Positions 25,582-54,758 of a stretch of 64,000 nucleotides of DNA are shown one piece after another; within the stretch, counting starts at the first letter, position 1, and every line of letters begins with the position of its first letter. The position numbers were made by a program, and so were the translations under genes. This DNA comes from Botryllus schlosseri (taxonomy: Eukaryota), in assembly GCA_051294905.1 (NCBI GenBank), contig CM119371.1, positions 39,496,001 through 39,560,000 of the forward strand. The letters are read 5' to 3'. The notes under the pieces are model-generated. The model did not search any database. It was not told the DNA's origin and worked only from the letters and a program-made list of their open reading frames with translations.

Positions 25582-26745
25582 AGGGTAGGTCAAAAATAAC
25601 TTTTTTTCGGATCTCCGGGATTCACTGATTACATCGTTAGGTTGCCTAAAAAAACGCTGCACACAAAATTGGGCTAAAGTCCTACCAGTAGAGGACGAGG
25701 CAGAGGCAGTTGAAATTTATTATTTTTAAATAATAATTACTGTAATCCTCATGAAATTGTTGAGTTGTGTACGAAAACGATGCAAAACAAATTTGACGTA
25801 ACTCCAACCCATAGAATATAGAATAATTGATAATTTTCGGTTTTCCCACCGACAATGCTATTTTTGTAATTTAGTTAAAACTTTCAACTGCAATAACTTC
25901 GCCTCTGTCGGTTGGAATGGACCAAAAATTGTCATGCTTCCTTCTTTTAGGAAACTGAACAATTTTATGGAGTTGGCAGTAAAAGTTGAAAAATTAATTT
26001 TTTAATTTTGGTTTAATAAATTCAAGACTTCAATTGGCTCTGTGTCAGCTTATACCAGGGTTGTAATGACTAGAGTCATGACTCGACTCGAGTCTGACTC
26101 GAGTCACGATTTTCTAATGACTCGACTTGACTCGAGTAATTTTTTCAAAATACGGAAATGACTCGATTCGAGTCAATCTGTGTATTGACTCGACTTGGAC
26201 TCGAGTCATTGCGCATGACTCGAACCAAGTCATTGACTCGAGACTCAGACGGCCAAGACTGACATTTCATTGTAAATCCGAAGCCAACACACTATTGGGA
26301 TTCCGCCTGTTGGCACTGGCACTTGAAAATGCGAACAGAAACTGCTAAGAGTGAGGAAAATTGGTATATTTTAAAAGTGAACCGTTCGATATCACCAAAC
26401 AGAGTTTTAATAAGTGGATTTACCAAGACTTTATCTGGAAGCTGAGCAGTGAACACGATGACTTGGACTCGGACTCGAGTCATAATTCCATGACTCGGAC
26501 TCGACCCTCTGCTCACTGACTTGGACTTGACTCGGTGTGGAGTTGAAATGACTCGACTTGACTCGAGTCAAAACTATAAAAGTGAGATTGACTTGTGACT
26601 CGGAGCCTTGTGACTTGGTTACAATCCTGGCTTATACTGGTTGTAATCGAGCCAAATTTGGTGCGCAGCGATTATTTACCCAACCTAACAATTTAATCAG
26701 TTAATCCCCGAAATCTGGATAAAAAGATATTTTTGAACCATCCTA
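25582..26745. mobile_element. TAGG-family MITE hosting GACTCGAGTC MITE copy B
   Basis: Ends GGGTAGGTCAAAAATAAC / GATATTTTTGAACCATCCTA; internal similarity to the 35206 family. Confidence 0.65.
26056..26629. mobile_element. GACTCGAGTC-rich hAT-like MITE (copy B, uninterrupted)
   Basis: TIR CAGGGTTGTAA / TTACAATCCTG; perfect 8-bp TSD GCTTATAC. Confidence 0.92.
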
Positions 26746-26750
26746 ATGTA

Positions 26751-27761
26751 GGTTGCCGGAGAACCCGGCCCTTGGAGAACCCGGCCCTACCAACCCGGCC
26801 CTTGGAGAACCCGGCCCTCGGTGAATTCCTCGGGAATTTTAAAATTAAGTGTATTCACAAGTATTAATATGAATTAATAAAGTAATAATGTTATTATCAA
26901 CTGATTTGTCAATCTTGTAAGGAGGTCAGGGCATGCGTAGGTCACGCAGTCACGGCGTGATCAGATCACGTGATCACGCTTGCGTGGTCGGCTCAGTGTT
27001 GAATTGACTTGGTGCGGGGCGGACGTGCGACGTTCGACATACTCGTATCTGTTCATGACATCGCATTGGGTCTTATCGCATTGTACATTGTGTGTGAATG
27101 TTCAGATGAAAAATATATCCCAACGATTGTTATTGCTCACATATCAACCACTCGTGGTCTGCTCGTTATTGCAACTGTAGGTTGAGGTGGGGCGTTAGGG
27201 TTGGGTAGGGTAGTTGGGAAAGGAGACATTAGGGTTCGGGGAGTGGGACATTAGGGTTGCCGGAGGTGGGATATTAGGGTTGCCGAAGGTGGGATATTAG
27301 GGTTGGTGGAGGTGGGATATTAGGGTTGCCGGGGGTGGGATATTAGGGTGGCCGGGGTGGGTTATTCGGGTTGCCGGGGGTGGGATATTAGGGTTGCCGG
27401 GGGTGGGATATTAGGGTTGCCTGGGGTGGGATATTAGGGTTGCCGGGGGTGGGATATTAGGGTTGCCGGAGGTGGGATATTAGGGTTGCCGGGGGTGGGA
27501 TATTAGGGTTGGTGGAGGTGGGATATTAGGGTTGCCGGAGGTGGGATATTAGGGTTAGGGTAGGATTTTAGGGTTGCCGGAGGTGGGATATTAGGGGTAG
27601 GGTTAGGGTTGCCGGGGGTGGGATATTAGGGGTAGGGTGAGGATATTAGGGTTGCCGGAGGTGGGATATTAGGATTGCCGGTGAATACTCCGAGGGCCGG
27701 GTTCTCCAAGGGCCGGGTTGGTAGGGCCGGGTTCTCCAAGGGCCGGGTTCTCTGGTAATCC
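26751..27761. mobile_element. Unclassified MITE with AACCCGGCCCT repeat TIRs and internal telomere-motif minisatellite
   Basis: ~75-bp TIRs built of four AACCCGGCCCT units; flanked by the direct repeat TAATGTA. Confidence 0.85.
27190..27680 (+). repeat. 23-bp G-rich minisatellite GGGATATTAGGGTTGCCGG(A/G)GGT containing TTAGGG
   Basis: About 20 tandem units read directly from the sequence. Confidence 0.95.
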
Positions 27762-29722
27762 TAATGTATATGTGTATTGTATAATATTGTATGCATGTAT
27801 TATGAGCAGACCTGATATGGCATGATAGTCACTTCAACTATACTGTTATTATTGCAAAACAATTTGCCGATGCGATGTCAGAACTCACTGTGTTGACGTA
27901 TTGCTAATTAGATGGGCGCTTTCTTTAGGACTTGAAATCATCTTCCGCGTGCTAATTCATGTCTACATGCGCATTCTAGAATTGCCGCGATCCCAGTAAT
28001 GCCGCTTGTTACCGAAGGTAGTCAGTGACGTAGTACTTCTACTTTTTGAAGTACACAAGTAGTTTTCGACAACTTCTAGTACTTACTCAAGTAAAATTAA
28101 TATTTCGCTACTTCCACTTCTACTTCATATTAGTTTGCCACTTACATACTTTTCACTATTTACAGTTTGTGAATCAAAACGATTATATTATTCCAATAAA
28201 GATAGAGAGAGAGAATGAGACTAAAAAAATTTTGTGACGTTTTTTGCCGCGTATCAAAAATAATTTACCTATCACAAAAGTTAAAAATGTTCGGAACGTT
28301 CGTCGTGCTTTGAGCAGAATAGATATGGAGCGACAAGAATGTTTTCATGGAATTGTTGGTCAGTATTATTTATGTAAGATCATTTCATAACATACTTTCG
28401 CCTATATGACACGTTTCATCGCAGTAAATATGGCTCAAAAAATATTCGAAACTATCTCATCGTAATCTTGCATTCTAGCCGCACAACGAGTGTTCAAACA
28501 GGGAAAAAATGGTCCTTGACTTTTTACCGCTAGACCGTTGAGCGTCAATCGCCTTTGAAACCGTATAAAACCGGTTTTAAATATTGTAGTCGAATTTCTC
28601 CTCATGCACGGTATCGCTACAGTTGGTTTTTTAATTAATCTTACTTCTTTTGTCCGAAGCACATGCCCGTAAAAGTGTAATAGTACGAAGTAAAATTAAA
28701 CGTGAATGGCATTTTACGATCTATCATATTGTTGCTTCACGTAACAATCATCGCGCAAATCGTTTCTACCGTTTCTGATACAACTCTGTATTGCTTCCGC
28801 CTCGACTGCGGGTCTTAGAATACTGCGGAGGTCATAATTCTATGACATTATCTAAAATAGATATCTGGGGTAAGCAAAAGTTAAGAGCCGCTTCTATGTA
28901 GCAAAGCTATCATTTGCATCCACGATGCGGTTTAATTCTCCTGTGTGGAAACTTTGTACTGAGCAGCACGAATCCATCTCTCTGTACCATCAGAAGGGCC
29001 CAGTTTCCGGTTTTGACAGACAATGACAGCGCATTTACAACTGCTTCTCACGACTACTTACATTGTTGCTTACTTGAGTAGATTTTAGGGTCGCTACTCC
29101 TAATTCTACTTGACGTAGTTTTAGGACGCCTAAAAAGGGATTACTTCTACTCGTGCTTAAGTAGATTTTACCTTCGCTACTTCTACTGGAGTAGATTATT
29201 TGACTACCTTGATTAACTCTGCTTGTAACTCACACAGTGCATTTTGCAGCGGCTCGTGGCCTTGGAACACGCAACTGCGACATGATTTGTAGAAAATATT
29301 GATGCTTATATTCTGAATTCATTCGAGTTGCCAATAAACTTGATCACCGACGAACTGACAGGTTTTGAGAACGCCAATATCTAACTTCAATCAATTGTGT
29401 ATTTAGTTGCAAGCTGAATTCTGTGTTTAGGTCACGGCATGCGCTAAGCACTCAAATTGCTGCTGCTACTCTACGTGACTCACCATTTCACTGAATCCGA
29501 TTGCATAGTTCGATATTAATGAGACGTAAGAATACGAAAACATCAAAACAATGGTAAATGTACGTCTTGTGGATGAATGCAGATGACATGTAGCAAAATG
29601 CCTTCTCTAGCGACTATGACGTAACGGATCGTGAGCGATGGTAACGTCACATGTCGTGCATACCCACATAAAATGACGCCTACACTTGTTAGTACGCAAC
29701 TACATCTTAGAATCGAACTCAC

Positions 29723-46222: not shown

Positions 46223-47634
46223 ACTACAGCATAGGCTACTGGATCTCGCAATAAAAATAATTGACAAGGAATTGAATGTGTGGTTATTGGTGTGCTGTGC
46301 AAACACGAGATGAAATACTCAAGACATTCTAGAGAGGTGATTTTGAACAATATGTCTGTGCTGAAGTCATGCTCGGTTGTGCCGTCACGTTATCGGTGTC
46401 GCTAACCTCCAGGGTATATTCCAATGGATTTGCTCTGTCTTTGACCAATCTTCTTGGTACTATCTATTCTGCTAGGCTCTTTAACATCTGGAGGGTAGCA
46501 AGAACATTTAGGTATGGATCCATTGTTATTCTCAGTCGCTATTGCACTATATTAATGTAGCTCTCTATAAAACAGGTTGTATTGAATTTTATGGTTGACC
46601 AAATTCTTGATAAACTGAAGTGAGATTTGGCTGTCAACAAACAAGATTACTCAACTGGGTAACAGCAGATAACTTTGCATTGCAAAATTGTAACATAAAT
46701 GCATTACTGTTTGTACAGCACTTGAGCACATTGCACAACAGTTAGATCCTTGCAATGGCTGAAATTTACTTCTACACTCCTGCAGAGCCAATTGTCATTG
46801 GTATGGAGAAATCAAAATCGTATGCAAATGTGTGTGCATGAACTCAATTTGTATATCTTCACATTGGTGAAGCGGCTAATGCACCAATAAACGGAAAATA
46901 AAATTATATCTGAAAAGTATCTATCTAGTTCTAGATATCCCTGAGTAATGAGATAAATGTCCTGCAATATACGAAATTTGTGGTAGAGTTTCTGGCATAG
47001 CAATACCGGTATAAGACGATGATTTTGGTACGCTATTCCTACAATACCTCTTTTCATAACCTCTAAACGTTTGTTCTGACGCGTTCATAACCTTACACTG
47101 TGCAGTAGCAACAGTTTAGTTAGCTGCTACACTCACATGACATCAACTAAACATACATATTACATATCTATGAAGAGCGCATCTCTCCCTTATGACGACA
47201 CAGTTCATATCGCCACCGACCGAAAACAGCTGATTGCTAGCGTACGTCATTTGAGTCGATTTGCGTCAGTAATCCGCGATAAGATAACTCACAGGCGAAT
47301 CCGTATCTGTACCACAGAGTCACCAGGTGACCTTGCTCGCTGATTAAATTATCGCCGATTAAGGCAATCGGTGATTACTTTTCAATCGGCATCTGTGCAA
47401 TCCACCCTAAAGCATAGAAAACTGAATGGGATAGAACGGTAACTGCGTGGCCTGTCAATCATTTCCGGTCGGGTAACAGTGACCTCACGAGTTGAGCAAA
47501 TTTGCGCCAGTCACAAAACCTTAGCATTGAGAAAGTGTCTGTTTTCTGTTAGTGATCTTTTGGGGCATTTGACCTTATTGTAGGTGTTTTGCAGATATGT
47601 ATTAGTGATTAATTACAACTATCGAATATTGGAA

Positions 47635-49040
47635 ATGCCTGCAAACAGTTGTGCCTTCCCTGGTTGTAATACTATTCGGAAAAATAGTAATTCAGTACTG
47701 TCATGGGATCTGGATTTCTCAACCTTTTGCCTGGTACTCAACTAAATCAATTAAAGCTTGGAAACTGGCAAATTTGACATGGCGTGTGATCATGGAGTGC
47801 GAATCAAACGGCTTTGAGGTTCATGCTGTTGTTGCTGATGGCCATCCAACCAATCGTAAAATGTTCAAAATCATGAGTGGTAGTAAGGAAATTCCAATGG
47901 GGAAATTGTTCATGACACCGAATCCAGCTTCTGCTGACAGGAACATTTACTTTTTGTCCGATCCTTCCCACTTACTCAAGGTAAGCTTGGTTGTTTGGCA
48001 TTCATTCATAACTCATGAATATGTAGCTTTGTATTCTCGATAGACTGTACGAAACTCTCTCTACAATTCGCGGCCAGGTGGGTCAAAATTTCTGTGTTGG
48101 AGTGGACAGCATATCCTATGGACATACGTTGAGGACCTCTTCTATAAAGACGCTGCTTCACTTCTGAGTGAATCGGGACTCACAGAGTCCCATATTCACC
48201 TGACGCCTTACACCAAGGTTGGTTTACCTTCAGCTGACGTCCTATAAAATATTTTATAATATAGTTTATGGCCCTATTGTCCCTCAGATGAAAGTAGATC
48301 TCGCCAGAGGAGTTTTGAATTGGAAAGTCGGAAATTGTCTCTCGAAGATTGCTGGAGCTGAAGGAACTTCAAAGTTTATTCTTCTTTTTTCCAAGTAAAT
48401 TTCTCTTTTTTCATTTTTCGTTATTATTGACTGTATTCAGGTGGTTTGAAATAATCAATTGTGGCTACAAATGTCCGGTAAAAAAAAACGACAAACAGCT
48501 GACATGGCTTCAGAATGAGTTTGTGACATCGCTGTTGGATTGGGAAGTAAGTAGCCTACGTCTTGTGAATTTAGCAATTTAATTTAATTTTGTTGAATGT
48601 TTCAAGGAGGATGTATCTAAGCATCACAGAGGAGAGAGAAAAAGGATATTAGCTCGTCCAACTCTTGAAGGACTCATTTTCACTACATTGAATCTGGTCA
48701 AATTAGCTGAAATATTTCTCGAAGTAATGCCCCGTTTATGGCTCAAGTCCTTTACTCAGGACATTCTGGAGGCTTGTTTTGGAAATCTGGTCTGTGTCAA
48801 TTTTCCAGTATGTGGCATAATTTGATTTCTAATGCATCCTCTAACTAACAGAGAATGCAAGCATATCGATCTCGGCATCCTGATGCTTCGCAGGCATACT
48901 ATGGGCTGCAACACCAGACTCAGCGAAAGTCCATAAAAAAGATCAAAGGGTCCAATGCCGGTTCCTCTTCCACGCATGGCACCAGTAACGTTTGGACTAC
49001 CATCTATGAAGAACCCATCGCCAAGAAGAAGAAAGCGTAG
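47635..49040 (+). pseudogene. P-element/THAP9-like transposase, internally deleted; exons 47635-47980, 48044-48217, 48288-48394, 48441-48546, 48607-48789, 48852-49040
   Basis: THAP start MPANSCAFPGCN, then a jump to VVADGHPTNRKMF, DPSHLLK|TVRN, K|MKVDLA, QDILEACFGNL|R and GSN. Five GT-AG introns of 46-70 nt keep the frame open. Confidence 0.88.
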
Positions 49041-50954
49041 TTCATAATCATTCCAGCACAGGGTGAGATAGTCGTAGACTCATTAATACTAGCACAGAGC
49101 GAGATATGTATACACAATATTTACTCCCTTTTCCACGCATGCATACATAATATTTACTCCCTTTTCCACGCAGAGCATTGCATATGCATAAATGTGATCA
49201 TTTTTAGACCAAGGATTGTCACAGTAGCCATGATAGATGATCATCTTGGATGAAGGTGCAGGGCGCTGTCATTCTAAGGTACTTTCATTTTTCTCAACAT
49301 ATATAAGTAAAACTGTAATCCCCATATATTAGTAAAACTGTAATCCCCACGCCCTATGTTCCACCCAGTTCAACGTTGTCTTATGGCTTGCTCCTATTCT
49401 AACCCTTGTCCAGTCCACTGATTTACAACCCCACCATATGCTGCCGTAGATATTTATTTTTCAGATGCAGTTGGAAACGGTCAATATTTACAAGCCGCGA
49501 CACCACGGACCATGCAACGATGGATGATGAAATCGAATGAATATCTTCAAACTGTCACTGACATGAAACCCATTTGCTAGATGTGAAAGGGTCATGGCGA
49601 CCCGGAGATCTTTCATTTTAACCGGGTTTACACTTTGGTCTCCACGGTGTCTTCATGCACCAAGCAGTCACTTCCAGTTGTGCCCCGGATAGTTTTTGCA
49701 TAACTGGCTAACATCTAGCAAATGGTCGATGATGGTCAATACACAATACCACAAATAACTGTTGAAATGTGTTCATTTCTTTAAAGGATTGCATGAAATG
49801 AGATAGCAGTTAACAATGCCTTATGACTACATAGCCGGAATATAGTAATATTGTGCCCTCCATTTCATATGGTAGAGGGTTAGCTGATATACGCATCGTC
49901 ATTGAACCGTCATACTTGTAATGACCTGCGATGTAAAATGTTAGCACCAGAGAGAGAGAGAGAGTCAGCGGTGCAGGCAGAATGTGTAACCTGAAAAATA
50001 ATGCATAGCGTATTAGAAAGCATAAATGCCGCTGGTGCTAATCTTGGGTCATATTCATAGAAACTAGATGGGAAGTAATTAAAAGGCGAGTTACATGCTA
50101 ATAACTATGAAATTGCAAACAAAACAATTCATCATTCTTTACTCAAGATTGGTTTTCCCTTCAAATCACCACGAGTACCCTGGCTTCCTTTATTCGATTC
50201 TCTTCCTTTTCTAAGTTTACTAACTAGCTTTTTCGTGAAGGAGTGACCCAACACTCTGAGAAATAAGCCAATGATATAATCTATAACTAGTTTGGAATGG
50301 ACATCAGAACATGTCGCTCTGTTGATGCTGCTTCTGAAGTTGAAGACGTACGAACTTTCGATGACTCTGTCCTGCAAAATTGAAAAGTTCTTTAACTTTG
50401 GGGATTTGCTGCATTCCCTTGTAAACTCCCTGTAGACTCTCCTAAGAAGAAAGAGCAGCTCTGAGCTTGGATAAATAAGTGCCCCGGCCTTCCGCTCCAT
50501 TTGGGGGATCAACTTTCCAAAGGGCTTACCAGTGTTATTTGTAATATATTCAAGCAAAGATTGGTCCAACTGGTCATTGAATTTTCGAATTGCCTTTCTC
50601 AAAGTAAAACCAGCCATGTATTCCAAAATATCACTCTCCCTTTCAGAAATACTGGCAGACACTAATGACTCAGGCTGCGGTGCCTTTATTCCATTATCAA
50701 TAATTCTTTCCATGAGCTCAAGTAAAAATTTGGCAGAGAGAAGCCTGTCCTTTTGATTGTGTGAATGCCGCAAACCTTACTGTTACTCATCACAAGATCA
50801 TCAGGATTTCCGTTGGAGTTCATACTGATAATCCAACCCGTAGCTAGTTCAATACCTTTTTCAGAGAGTACTGGCGGGTCCTTGAAATCCAATGAGCGCA
50901 GCAGCGGTGCAAGATCAACAGGTTGCTGTATGATATTTGGAACATACATGGTGT

Positions 50955-53837
50955 CAGAGATGCCACTGAGATATTTTGGAAAAACCCAGATCTGAGCACT
51001 AAAAAAACCCAGAAAAACCCAGATCTTGTATTTCGCTTAAATTACCATAATTCGCCTGTAATGAATTAAAAGAAAGGTGCGTTAGTCCTTTGGCGTCAAT
51101 ACAATACGTCCAAACCTAATATTAGACAAAGATTTGACGAGGACAATGCAATTCAACAGTCATTCATGAAAGGTACAAAATTGCATACAATACATTTAGT
51201 TCAATTTGGAGAAGGCTTAAATGGCACAACTAATTATGCGACATGATCCAATTGCCTTCACTCAGAATCTTCGCCACTATCAACTCTCTGTCGTTTCAAT
51301 CTTTCTTGATAACGGTGTCTACAAGCACCAGATGCAACATCCTTTACCAAATCTGGTTTAGGTGTCCAGTCGAAGCAGTTCTTCTGATGTCTCGATAAAG
51401 TCTGTTTCGCCAACAGTCTGTTCCTTACAGTATCGGTTTGAAGCCTGTTGGTTTTCTTTGTTTTCATATGATTTATGACAGAAAAGATTCTCTCCACGCA
51501 AGCCGATGAGTGCGGCAAAACTGTTAAGTGAGTCATGAACTCTGAGAGCAATTTGAATTTCGGAATACCACAGCCATCTGTAATCCTGCGAACAGAATAC
51601 CAAAAATCTGGAATAGATTTATGCGAGAATGGTATGTTCTCAAATCTACGGAACAGTCTCCATTCGTCATCTAATTTGTCCAACTCATCTTCTGTCACAA
51701 GATGTGGAAATTTTTGCGCAACGTCGATGATTGAAGATGGAGACTTTGCCGTGTCTGTGGCAATTTCAGGATCAAGAATATGCAATTTCGCAATGATTCC
51801 ATCTTTATGCAGAGGAAATCTGTTTTTAATTTGGTCACAAAGCTCAATCATGAAAGCCTGGCAGTCCCTTCTGAACATGAGGTCACCACAAGAAGGACTT
51901 ATAGGTACCGAACACAGCATTGACATACATCGGCCACCAAGATATAGGTCCTTCAGCGGCTTATGCAGAAGCTGATTATTTGGGTCAATATCTGCGATAT
52001 TGAATGAAGTCAGTACTTGGTCTTTGATGAAGCAGCTTAATATATCTCTATACTGAGAAATTATCATTGAATGGAGAACATGCAATCTGAAACTCTCCGA
52101 TTGAAATTCAGTATTCAGTCCATCAACCTTGTCCAAAATATAATTCAAAAAAAGAAGCATGTGCTTGGTGCCGTTGTTTTTCATTGTCTGATAGATCGCA
52201 TTACTCCCTTCGACTTTGTCAGACAAAGATTCCTTTTGGAAGTAGAGGATTAATGCATCCCATTGTTCAAGTATTGACTTGATTAAATTGCCACGCGAAA
52301 GCCAACGCGTTTGAGCCAATTTAGGAATTCGGTGCTGCTCTGTCTTCGATATCTCTTGCATTTCCGTGGATTCATGCAATCGCTTGCTGCTTCGTGAGAA
52401 GTAAGAGGATATTTCTTTCATGAAGATTTCAAGGTATGATGGCAATACCTTTACTGCATGACTAGCACATAATGCAAATGAATGGCAAACACATCCCATA
52501 GTAAATACTGACGGAATTTCGTTCTTCAGCAAAGCTAGGAAGCCACTTTTTCGCCCCATCATTGTGGAACAATTATCACTACCAAACCCAACAATATTGC
52601 AGATGGGTATCCCCTTTTCATCCAAAGTCCGTTTAACTGCCTCGTATAATCCTGCTGAAGTTCCTGAATCAACGTCTACCGTATCTAGTAGCCTATCCGT
52701 AACATCTGATTTCACAGTGTCGAAGTATCGCACGACAATGGCTAACACTTGGGACACTGATATATCTGTGCTTTCGTCAATGATCAATGAAAACTTCGAG
52801 TTTTTACAGATATCACTCATCTCCAGTTTTTCATGAAAAGCAATTCCTTCCTGAAGAATGTATGAAGCCTTTGTTTTGCTCATACATATCGACTTGGATA
52901 TCTTACTATCACTGAAGGCATTTTTACAGACTTTCACCAAGTGATCGCACTGAGAAAATGGCACGTGGTGCTCTGCAATAAAAGCAGTAATCAGAAGTTC
53001 CGCTTTTGCCGTTTCCTCAGCCTCACTCGGTTTCCTCTTTTCCATGAATATATCAATGCTCGGTGCTAATTTGGTTACTTTCATACTCTGCATATGCTTG
53101 GCAGTTTTGCTATGTGCCAGTAGCATCGATTTATTGGCATTTCTTATTTTGATTCCACAGCAAACACAAAAACTGCATCCCTTCTCTTTCTCATCCTCCT
53201 TTAGCCACCCTTTCAGTTTCTCGTCGCTTAACCAACTCTTTTTGAAAGTCTGTGCATACCACTTTTTAACTTTTTTAGGACTTGGCATAACTGACTTGAG
53301 ACTATAATAACGAATCCGGAGCCCAAGTAATTCTTTAAATAGTTTCTATATGAAGAAATACCAGACAGTAAATAGGCCTACATGTAATTGGTCCGCCACG
53401 CCACAGATCTGTGTCAGCGAGCGACTACATGCATGTAGGTAGGTGTCAATAAAAGAATTAAAGCTACCTTTGAGACTGGAATCAGACTGGTCTATACCGG
53501 TAATACGTAGTAGTAACTAGTAACTCTACTACTGTAGCGCTGTTATTGCTATGACTACGATTGACACTCTCTCGACTCGGTAGTCAACAGTCAACACGCG
53601 TCGGAACCGCCAGTTGTATACGTAACAATGCAAATTGGATGATATATCTGTCAGCAATAGCGCATAGAAGTGTCTGCATTTCTGGATAATGTTACTTTGT
53701 CACTTACGTAAGTATAATTTCGAAACTCAAGACTCGAAATTGAAAAAAACCCAGATTTTCAGGTAAAAAACCCAGAAACCCAGGTGATGCTCGAAAAACC
53801 CAGATCTGGGTGGAAAAACCCAGGAGTGGCATCTCTG
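50955..53837 (-). mobile_element. Potentially autonomous hAT transposon
   Basis: TIR CAGAGATGCCACT / AGTGGCATCTCTG; perfect 8-bp TSD CATGGTGT; AAAACCCAG subterminal repeats at both ends. Confidence 0.97.
51258..53288 (-). CDS. hAT transposase (ZNF862-like), 676 aa, intact
   Basis: N-terminal zinc finger CVCC...HSKTAKH; IIDESTD, GSDN, CVCH, TRWLS, SSACVERIFS motifs. Confidence 0.95.
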   Translation of the reverse strand: MPSPKKVKKWYAQTFKKSWLSDEKLKGWLKEDEKEKGCSFCVCCGIKIRNANKSMLLAHSKTAKHMQSMKVTKLAPSIDIFMEKRKPSEAEETAKAELLITAFIAEHHVPFSQCDHLVKVCKNAFSDSKISKSICMSKTKASYILQEGIAFHEKLEMSDICKNSKFSLIIDESTDISVSQVLAIVVRYFDTVKSDVTDRLLDTVDVDSGTSAGLYEAVKRTLDEKGIPICNIVGFGSDNCSTMMGRKSGFLALLKNEIPSVFTMGCVCHSFALCASHAVKVLPSYLEIFMKEISSYFSRSSKRLHESTEMQEISKTEQHRIPKLAQTRWLSRGNLIKSILEQWDALILYFQKESLSDKVEGSNAIYQTMKNNGTKHMLLFLNYILDKVDGLNTEFQSESFRLHVLHSMIISQYRDILSCFIKDQVLTSFNIADIDPNNQLLHKPLKDLYLGGRCMSMLCSVPISPSCGDLMFRRDCQAFMIELCDQIKNRFPLHKDGIIAKLHILDPEIATDTAKSPSSIIDVAQKFPHLVTEDELDKLDDEWRLFRRFENIPFSHKSIPDFWYSVRRITDGCGIPKFKLLSEFMTHLTVLPHSSACVERIFSVINHMKTKKTNRLQTDTVRNRLLAKQTLSRHQKNCFDWTPKPDLVKDVASGACRHRYQERLKRQRVDSGEDSE

Positions 53838-54758
53838 CATGGTGTCCTTCCTTTTGTCAAAGTCGTTGAAGAGCAGTTCATGGACAATTTCCGGAGGAAT
53901 ATCGTACCACTCCTCAACAACATCACTGACTTTCGAAGCCATAATTTCAATAGATATACTGTATAAATGAGTATACATTAAAATATTAATAATAATAATA
54001 AGACAGATCCCATGACAGTACTGAATTACTATTTTTCCGACTAGTATTACAACTATAGGGAAGGCACAACTGTTTGCAGGCATTTCCAATATTCGATAGT
54101 TGTAATTAATCACTAATACATATCTGCAAAACACCTACTATAAGGTCAAATGCCCCAAAAGATCACTAACAGAAAACAGACACTTTCTCAATGCTAAGGT
54201 TTTGTGACTGGCGCAAATTTGCTCAACTCGTGAGGTCACTGTTACCCGACCGGAAATGATTGACAGGCCACGCAGTTACCGTTCTATCCCATTCAGTTTT
54301 CCATGATTAAAGTCACCGAACGTAAACCTCTAAATTTCATAGGTTCACATATAGAAAGCGAACGTGAACCTCATGTTCACATCATCCCTAGAAACTTTCC
54401 AGGCTTCAACAATGTCAACAGTTCTATTTATAATTCGATACTAGATTTTGACTAATACCGAACCTTTCACTAACCGGAAGATGTCCCTGAATGATGAATT
54501 GATTTGATCTAGCCTATCGCCAGTTCTGCTACTACCAGTGTGGCCAACTCTGGATGGACAAAAATCACTAAAACTGGTGTCGAAAATCGCTAGACGTCGC
54601 CAAATCTCGAAACAAAATCGCTAGAAAAAGTCGCTAAATCTGAATTAATTCCTAAAGTTATTGTAATACCCACCCGTACATCCGCATTGCAGATTTCGCG
54701 TCATTTATGGCATTTTTAGTTGTGCCTGTACATTAGCTTGGCTGTCAAAGCTATAAAG

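Follow-up and report, generated by a model that had tools for sequence, protein, structure and literature searches.

A stretch of 64,000 nucleotides of the Botryllus schlosseri genome (positions 39,496,001 to 39,560,000 of contig CM119371.1, assembly GCA_051294905.1), referred to below as the window, contains at positions 47413-54305 a DNA transposon of the P superfamily with long inverted ends. Two genes, or what is left of them, face each other between these ends. The plus-strand gene, open reading frame 1 (ORF1), codes for a predicted P-type transposase that terminates before the C-terminal domain (CTD), which in canonical P and THAP9 proteins belongs to the same polypeptide as the catalytic core. 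The minus-strand gene, ORF2, codes for a protein that resembles this domain. Our reading, to which we assign a probability of about 0.7, is that this is a cut-and-paste transposon of the P superfamily, present here as a dead copy and belonging to a family with two convergent genes and terminal inverted repeats (TIRs) of ~468 bp, where ORF2 supplies the CTD. A sequence-only reading of the window had suggested a two-component P element of this kind, and all the sequence features it named were found in place.

The inverted arms cover 47410-47661 and 54057-54308 (252 nt, 99% identical) and, further inwards, 47663-47712 and 54004-54053 (50 nt, 98%). The termini of the window copy, 47413 (CATAG...) and 54305 (...CCATG), which the sequence-only reading had also given, were confirmed by the junctions and by sister copies, whose ends read CATGG...CCATG. 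In the P superfamily, target-site duplications of 7-8 bp are expected. Duplications of 7 bp were found, perfect in 8 of 8 sister copies; in the window copy, the left one (cctaaag, 47406-47412) is degenerate and agrees with the right one (attaaag, 54306-54312) at 5 of 7 positions. The 98-99% identical arms and the 7-bp duplications are thus those of a P-superfamily element.

To place the window copy within its family, the 495.5-Mb assembly that holds the window was searched, and 13 sister copies of the element were aligned. The 303-bp arm gave 52 matches in the genome, many of them forming inverted pairs 2-10 kb apart. Comparison of the arms and the sister alignment showed that the TIR of the family measures ~468 bp and is present at full length on the right side of the window copy (53838-54305, minus strand), so that the left TIR (47413-47712, plus strand) is a shortened arm of 300 bp. 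The family looks recently active, since its copies are 96-99% identical and have perfect duplications. The left TIR bears a diverged duplicate of THAP exon 1 at 47566-47699, and the right TIR bears a THAP-exon-1-like segment at 54017-54152 together with the start of ORF2. In both TIRs, the order is the same: the diverged duplicate, which covers the opening part of THAP exon 1, comes first and the ORF2 start follows, so that on the ORF1 side the true THAP exon is preceded by a 54-codon ORF2-start frame contributed by the TIR. The true internal THAP exon of the sister copies (6159-6293 in L035) is 86-89% identical to the TIR segment 47566-47699.

The copy in the window is dead and of composite make-up. 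From the 5′ part of its ORF1, ~2.9 kb is missing, which in the sister copies comprises the THAP domain, the helix-turn-helix (HTH) domain and the first RNase H exons, and at the deletion junction 47712/47713 the TIR is fused to the middle of the exon for the RNase H N-terminal part. The sister alignment shows that internal deletions are frequent in the family. Moreover, positions 50955-53837 represent an insertion of a hAT-type transposon, because in the sister copies position 50955 adjoins 53838. Since ORF1 has lost its 5′ 2.9 kb and ORF2 is both split by the hAT-type insert and frameshifted, the window copy is unable to supply either protein.

What remains of ORF1 in the window is a series of plus-strand exons whose boundaries were derived from RNA joints of the sister copy L035. 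The first of them (47713-47980) is a remnant; it retains the latter half of the RNase H N-terminal part, including the aspartate of AVVADGH, and matches Pfam TNP-like_RNaseH_N with E 1.5e-7 over profile positions 84-136 of 137. The next exon (48044-48217) starts the GTP-binding insertion domain (GBD), with a weak Pfam match in L035 (E 0.19), and this domain continues in the exons 48288-48394 (mapped to the window by the joint 3198/3253 of L035) and 48441-48546. In the P superfamily, GTP is the expected cofactor of transposition. The RNase H C-terminal part is encoded by the exon 48607-48789, which lies within the open frame 48583-48825 and ends with ...FTQDILEACFGN, the catalytic E motif; diverged ORF1 homologues weakly match positions 1-15 of 35 of TNP-like_RNaseH_C here (E 0.011-0.06). 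The last coding exon (48852-49040) occupies the final open frame, 48849-49040, ends with ...KKKKA and a stop codon (49038-49040), and contains no CTD. The stop is located 61 codons past QDILEACFGN, and the same ending recurs in diverged families and in the homologue P0045 described below. Downstream of the stop, a GT..AG intron at 49063-49207 lies in the 3′ untranslated region.

The complete gene can be followed in L035 (6.6 kb), where the following parts lie on one strand in this order: the THAP domain, split by an intron into exons with Pfam E values of 0.0018 and 0.11, both below the cut-off; a P-type HTH (E 0.0043); RNaseH_N (E 2.9e-10); the GBD (E 0.19); the exon with QDILEACFGN and the last exon of 63 codons, the latter two having no Pfam match. 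The THAP exons of L035 are conserved in diverged families at 34-52%. A THAP domain is thus present in the full-length sister copies, and the window copy retains only the TIR-borne duplicate of its first codons. The RNA data on L035 comprised a raw RNA-seq run (X24) and two contig sets with spliced forms (X1 and X2). Among the joints listed, ten minus-strand GT..AG introns of L035 fall in the coding part of ORF1, which gives the gene at least 11 exons, and an eleventh, of 145 nt, lies past the stop. The latter (joint 2433/2579) was supported by 2 reads of X24 and by the X1 contig, the X2 contig being joined two places further (2435/2581). The last coding intron, also RNA-supported in L035, corresponds to window 48790-48851. 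Since the eleventh intron lies downstream of the stop codon, the stop is kept in the mRNA. The sequence-only reading had claimed such an early ORF1 stop in the window, and the RNA reads, which retain it, bear this out.

An independent view of ORF1 is provided by P0045, a spliced homologue from another assembly and the one match in a word-index protein search with the largest ORF1 exon, to which it is 68% identical. This protein of 393 aa matches RNaseH_N (E 8.1e-18) and the GBD (E 5.6e-10) and no CTD family, and it ends 61 residues past ...EACFGN with a basic tail. The catalytic core of the P superfamily, RNase H with its GBD, is therefore present, and ORF1 is, judged by its domains, a P-type transposase. 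A CTD in the same polypeptide as the core, as in canonical P and THAP9 proteins, was not found: the stop before it was seen in the window, in P0045 and in RNA reads. A search of PDB sequences at E<=10 with the ORF1 C-terminal stretch L052:7653-8078 (in-frame intron included) gave no match.

ORF2, in copies without the hAT-type insertion, is a single-exon gene of 309 aa on the minus strand with its ATG inside the TIR. In the window, the alignment to intact copies places codons 1-35 at 53838-53942 (minus strand), with the start codon 53940-53942 inside the right TIR, and codons 36-309, which encode the CTD-like part, at 50132-50946 (minus strand), with the stop at 50132-50134; the latter segment has lost 11 nt at 50767/50768 and gained 1 nt near 50754. 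The minus-strand frame that the sequence-only reading had singled out for ILEYMAGFTLRK and GALIYPS was recovered at 50132-50776 (214 aa) with both motifs. The full reading frame, which that reading had reconstructed as ~305 aa, does exist, its length being 309 aa in the intact copies L032, L034 and L038, which were the 3 of 13 scanned loci to hold an intact ORF2. These three are deletion derivatives, down to 2.0 kb in size, that carry an intact ORF2 between TIRs (L034 lies at G000:C9:15501444-15503880).

According to its AlphaFold model, which is all-helical with a pLDDT of 81.8, ORF2 would consist of a helical N-terminal domain (residues ~44-130), a CTD fold (136-286) and a basic tail. To look for relatives of the protein in sequence, we used an alignment of ORF2 with 25 homologues (A1, 26 members). 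The A1 profile searched against 177,635 PDB sequences gave chain B of the Drosophila P transposase structure (6p5a_B) as the top match, with E 7.2e-4, the next match having E 0.49; profile positions 133-248 were aligned to 2-121 of 6p5a_B. In Pfam, 14 of the 26 members matched Tnp_P_element_C at E<=0.1 (best 1e-5), and among 17 members scanned separately the curated cut-off was passed by three (P0004, P0010 and P0016). The structural comparison points to the same domain. Foldseek with the ORF2 model ranked 6p5a_B first with a probability of 0.95 and an E value of only 0.14, and a search of 48,161 chains made independently of Foldseek again ranked it first, as the sole chain with Z>=8 (next 6.9). 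VIA-align superimposed ORF2 residues 136-286 on 617-734 of 6p5a_B with Z 10.1 and rmsd 2.6 Å over 115 of 118 residues, thus assigning the predicted model to the all-helical CTD fold. The confident helical domain at residues 44-130 gave no convincing structural match, and a search of the ESM Atlas gave no usable match. A genome-wide Pfam search for PF12596 yielded 0 matches at E<=0.01, and this result is uninformative because the control genomes likewise had none. Both the sequence profile and the predicted fold thus support a resemblance of ORF2 to the CTD of the Drosophila P transposase, a likeness which the sequence-only reading had proposed to check by these very means.

Could this resemblance be fortuitous? 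If ORF2 came from an unrelated insertion or were a captured host gene, its helical fold might resemble the P CTD by chance. The sequence matches are indeed weak (the Pfam matches of the family itself are below the cut-off, and the PDB profile match has E 7e-4), and helical bundles can reach middling Z values by chance. Against this, 6p5a_B came first both among 177,635 PDB sequences and among 48,161 structures, with 115 of 118 residues aligned, and in the diverged loci considered below ORF2 always adjoins a CTD-less P transposase. Furthermore, ORF2 has no ends of its own, because its start codon lies inside the TIR of the element and the hAT-type transposon is the only nested insertion. We consider a foreign origin very improbable and rejected it on these grounds: the lack of own ends, the start in the TIR and the conserved pairing.

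Relatives of ORF2 are numerous. A HMMER scan, run in full against 1.84 billion representatives, yielded 42 clusters at E<=1e-3, 26 of them at <=1e-10; word-index protein searches with ORF2, at near and at longer lengths, had given no matches before that scan. The homologues covering most of the protein are mostly of 280-330 aa, with a maximum of 438 aa. Ten clusters were looked up, of which nine contained unnamed assembly products and one an "uncharacterized protein" of Ptychodera flava. In the genome, we found 133 ORF2-like matches, including 31 at 27-34% identity, and 26 of these 31 are free of stops. Between L032 and the ~90%-identical subfamily copy L038, dN/dS of ORF2 was 0.27, a value derived from small counts (12 changes at 199 synonymous sites and 12 at 728 non-synonymous sites). 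Taken together, the intact copies, the dN/dS value, which the sequence-only reading had asked for, the stop-free matches and the clusters of homologues indicate that ORF2 is a maintained gene. Two distant homologues, P0035 and P0039, have an added N-terminal C2H2 zinc finger and may be domesticated or variant forms; one zinc-finger-bearing homologue is XP_070545160.1 of Ptychodera flava. A search with a smaller alignment (A2) also gave a decayed ORF2-like frame in a 2.5-kb metagenome contig (L056), which is too short to tell about linkage.

The arrangement of the two genes is not peculiar to the window. The segment 47713-50955, which holds both genes, is contiguous in L033 (96.3% identity over 3304 columns) and in L035 (97.0% over 3286 columns). 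Furthermore, in each of the ten diverged loci fetched from the same genome, P-type ORF1 exons were found on the opposite strand, pointing towards ORF2; the convergence was established by tblastn in eight of these loci, the position of ORF2 in L053 and L054 being taken from the genome search with ORF2. The identity to the family in these loci is 27-32% for ORF2 and 34-59% for the ORF1 exons. In eight loci the elements are flanked by TIRs of 229-447 bp and measure 3.7-6.5 kb; no flanking TIR was detected for L051 and L054. Where the last ORF1 exon could be cleanly read (6 loci), ORF1 ends 45-63 codons past the QD[IV]LEAFFGN splice site; L051 and L052 show the same end point when read through an in-frame intron, and in L055 the last exon was not detected. 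The last exons of the diverged families share the pattern NPD..QA.Y..QH...K.IK... and a basic tail. In L052, the stops of ORF1 and ORF2 come as near as ~130 bp, which leaves no room for a CTD in cis, and a cis-fused CTD was found in none of the sister copies or diverged loci examined.

These data also bear on another way to obtain such a locus, a local rearrangement by which the 3′ exons of one transposase gene were inverted. The inversion might be confined to this copy, or it might mark a dead lineage that canonical single-gene P elements mobilise in trans. The window copy is, after all, heavily rearranged, having a 5′ deletion and a nested hAT-type element, and no fully intact two-gene copy was present among those fetched. 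Inverted 3′ exons would hardly account for an ORF2 that starts at a codon of its own within the TIR and has ~130 extra N-terminal residues, for full-length homologues that stand alone and are mostly of 280-330 aa, for an ORF1 with its own conserved basic ending in diverged families, or for the presence of both genes in RNA-derived contigs. Because the layout is contiguous in the sister copies and recurs in 10 of 10 diverged loci, it is a property of the family and not a local inversion. With contiguity in the sisters, the ORF2 start in the TIR and convergence in all ten diverged loci, the inversion was rejected as extremely improbable. The sequence-only reading had named three findings that would speak against it (a second frame without likeness to the P CTD, other copies with the CTD in cis, and an unrelated insertion with its own ends). 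None of them was encountered; among the copies reached through the TIRs, L033 and L035 were contiguous across both genes and none had a cis CTD, and the convergent linkage, which it had proposed to look for in related genomes, held in all ten diverged loci of this genome, eight of them within TIRs.

As to expression, both genes are present in RNA-derived contigs, and the RNA-seq check advised in the sequence-only reading confirmed the splicing and the stop of ORF1. The reads correct frameshifts of L035 at three places (2899 in ORF1, 1328 and 1444 in ORF2), hence the expressed copies are intact at those three sites. No reads matching L035 were found in X21, a raw RNA-seq run with another organism label. 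For ORF2, an alternative GT..AG joint was revealed at 758/1634 of L035 (approximately window 50857/49993, minus strand), supported by 6 reads of X24. It removes codons 67-309 and predicts a 73-aa product. All 9 other copies checked have the donor motif of this joint, albeit with a changed base after the GT in one of them, and 5 of the 9 (L031, L032, L033, L037 and L038) have the acceptor.

Several observations weigh against a two-gene transposase with ORF2 as its CTD. The matches of the family's own ORF2 to Tnp_P_element_C stay below the cut-off (E 0.0078-0.03; 15-17 bits vs. 22.6), and a Z of 10 in an all-helical domain is not decisive alone. Among the copies fetched, a full-length one with both frames intact was not found, L035 being frameshifted in both. 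That ORF1 binds ORF2 and that transposition needs ORF2 are points which we infer. All three intact ORF2 copies (L032, L034 and L038) reside in elements where ORF1 is partly or wholly lost, and the spliced-out form of ORF2 is the commoner one, with a contig depth of 73 and 79 vs. 10-47 for the unspliced form. Co-folding of ORF2 with P0045, a stand-in for the ORF1 core from another source, scored 0.00 in two runs; as these used neither the alignment nor controls, the score counts neither for nor against this reading.

The loss of ORF1 around intact ORF2 and the splicing out of ORF2 would also fit a regulatory role, in which ORF2 would act as a repressor or titrating factor and not as a subunit, ORF1 alone being the working enzyme. 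Models for such a regulator are the truncated 66-kDa and KP proteins of the Drosophila P element and the second gene of MuDR, the role of which is unclear. Both the three intact ORF2 copies in ORF1-deleted elements and the commoner RNA form without most of ORF2, which suggests control of the ORF2 dose, favor this view. Nevertheless, because ORF1 lacks the domain, a free CTD would have no counterpart there with which to compete, and the linkage of ORF1 and ORF2 persists down to ~30% ORF2 identity. In the Drosophila structure, the CTD makes many DNA contacts, according to a review (PMC7776569), so an enzyme devoid of it would be expected to be impaired. We therefore regard the purely regulatory role as unlikely, and the reading that ORF2 supplies the CTD of ORF1 remains the one we prefer. 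The convergent CTD-like partner proposed in the sequence-only reading is thus supported; that the two proteins act together, ORF2 serving in trans as the CTD of the ORF1 transposase, is the part of the proposal that we infer.

How might such a transposase work? In the review PMC7776569, the CTD of the Drosophila enzyme is described as all alpha-helical, joined to the RNase H domain via a flexible disordered linker, packed on the other subunit and contacting the DNA of both the transposon and the target, its end being basic. Given the Pfam domain ends and the chain range of the CTD match (617-734), the stop of ORF1 would fall at the equivalent of this linker, and a split of the gene at the linker is plausible because the Drosophila CTD hangs on a flexible disordered connection. 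Most probably, ORF1 dimers would bind and cut the element ends, and ORF2 would be recruited non-covalently to the transpososome, thereby supplying the CTD; the extra N-terminal domain of ORF2 would probably substitute for the covalent linker as a docking piece. A more elaborate version, which is tentative and rather doubtful, holds that the CTD is a separable trans-acting subunit which serves this lineage as its point of control, its supply being gated by retention of the 875-nt intron of ORF2, codons 67-309 being otherwise removed. Such gating would be comparable to third-intron control in the Drosophila P element, and derivatives that, like L034, retain only ORF2 might then serve the whole family as helpers or dose modifiers.

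When compared to the known members of the superfamily, the family described here shares the short 7-bp duplication with Drosophila P transposase (PDB 6P5A/6PE2), THAP9 and zebrafish Pdre. Its termini begin with CATGG, the end of Drosophila P being CATGATG. Like Drosophila P, it has a CTD fold with a basic tail, but in ORF2, and internally deleted copies are common in both. Unlike in Drosophila P and THAP9, the CTD comes from a second, convergent gene with an extra N-terminal helical domain, and ORF1 has at least 11 exons, unlike Drosophila P. The TIRs of ~468 bp (229-447 bp in sister families), which contain the ORF2 start and the THAP exon 1 duplicate, contrast with the 31-bp TIR of Drosophila P. 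Two genes inside one DNA transposon are known from MuDR (mudrA and mudrB), PIF/Harbinger and CACTA; the genes of MuDR are convergent and driven from long TIRs, and PIF/Harbinger encodes a DNA-binding partner apart from its DDE enzyme. These superfamilies are unrelated to P, and their second protein, unlike ORF2, is not a split-off domain of the transposase. Long TIRs within the P superfamily also occur in Galileo/1360 (PMC3688188), and Galileo is described with one transposase gene, its abstracts making no mention of a second gene for the CTD. In the portions of the literature consulted, with Repbase and Kimbacher et al. 2009 outside this scope, we found no paper describing a P-type element whose CTD has a gene to itself, or a P family whose enzyme and usual tail domain are encoded by two convergent genes.

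The nested hAT-type transposon (50955-53837, minus strand) is 2883 bp long and has inverted ends, CAGAGATGCCACT.../...AGTGGCATCTCTG. Its junctions bear CATGGTGT at 50947-54 and again at 53838-45, a perfect 8-bp duplication. It contains an open frame of 695 codons (51258-53345), which matches DUF4371 (E 4.8e-6) and Dimer_Tnp_hAT (E 0.004) in Pfam, both below the cut-offs. The genome holds 3 full-length copies of this element (100, 96 and 94% identical) and many derivatives of ~1 kb, which have in common with them only the terminal 60-105 bp. Elsewhere in the window, the G+C content rises to 0.469 at 26001-28000 vs. ~0.39, and G strongly exceeds C there (skew 0.26).

Taken alone, the window carries a modest message, that of a dead composite element, and the significance of the finding lies in the family. 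The P element is among the best-studied eukaryotic transposons, THAP9 being its domesticated human relative, yet a single cryo-EM structure provides most of what is known about the role of the transposase's CTD. The retention of the CTD on a separate gene across deep divergence indicates that the domain is probably able to function in trans, and supplying or withholding ORF2 offers a natural route to test what the CTD does. With this family, P becomes another of the DNA transposon superfamilies with two-gene members. The finding also explains a class of orphan proteins, ~300 aa in length and weakly matching Tnp_P_element_C, of which XP_070545160.1 is an example. If the CTD is indeed supplied in trans under the control of intron retention, the family would represent a natural two-component P system, in which DNA-end handling and target capture by the CTD could be studied as well as tuned apart from catalysis.

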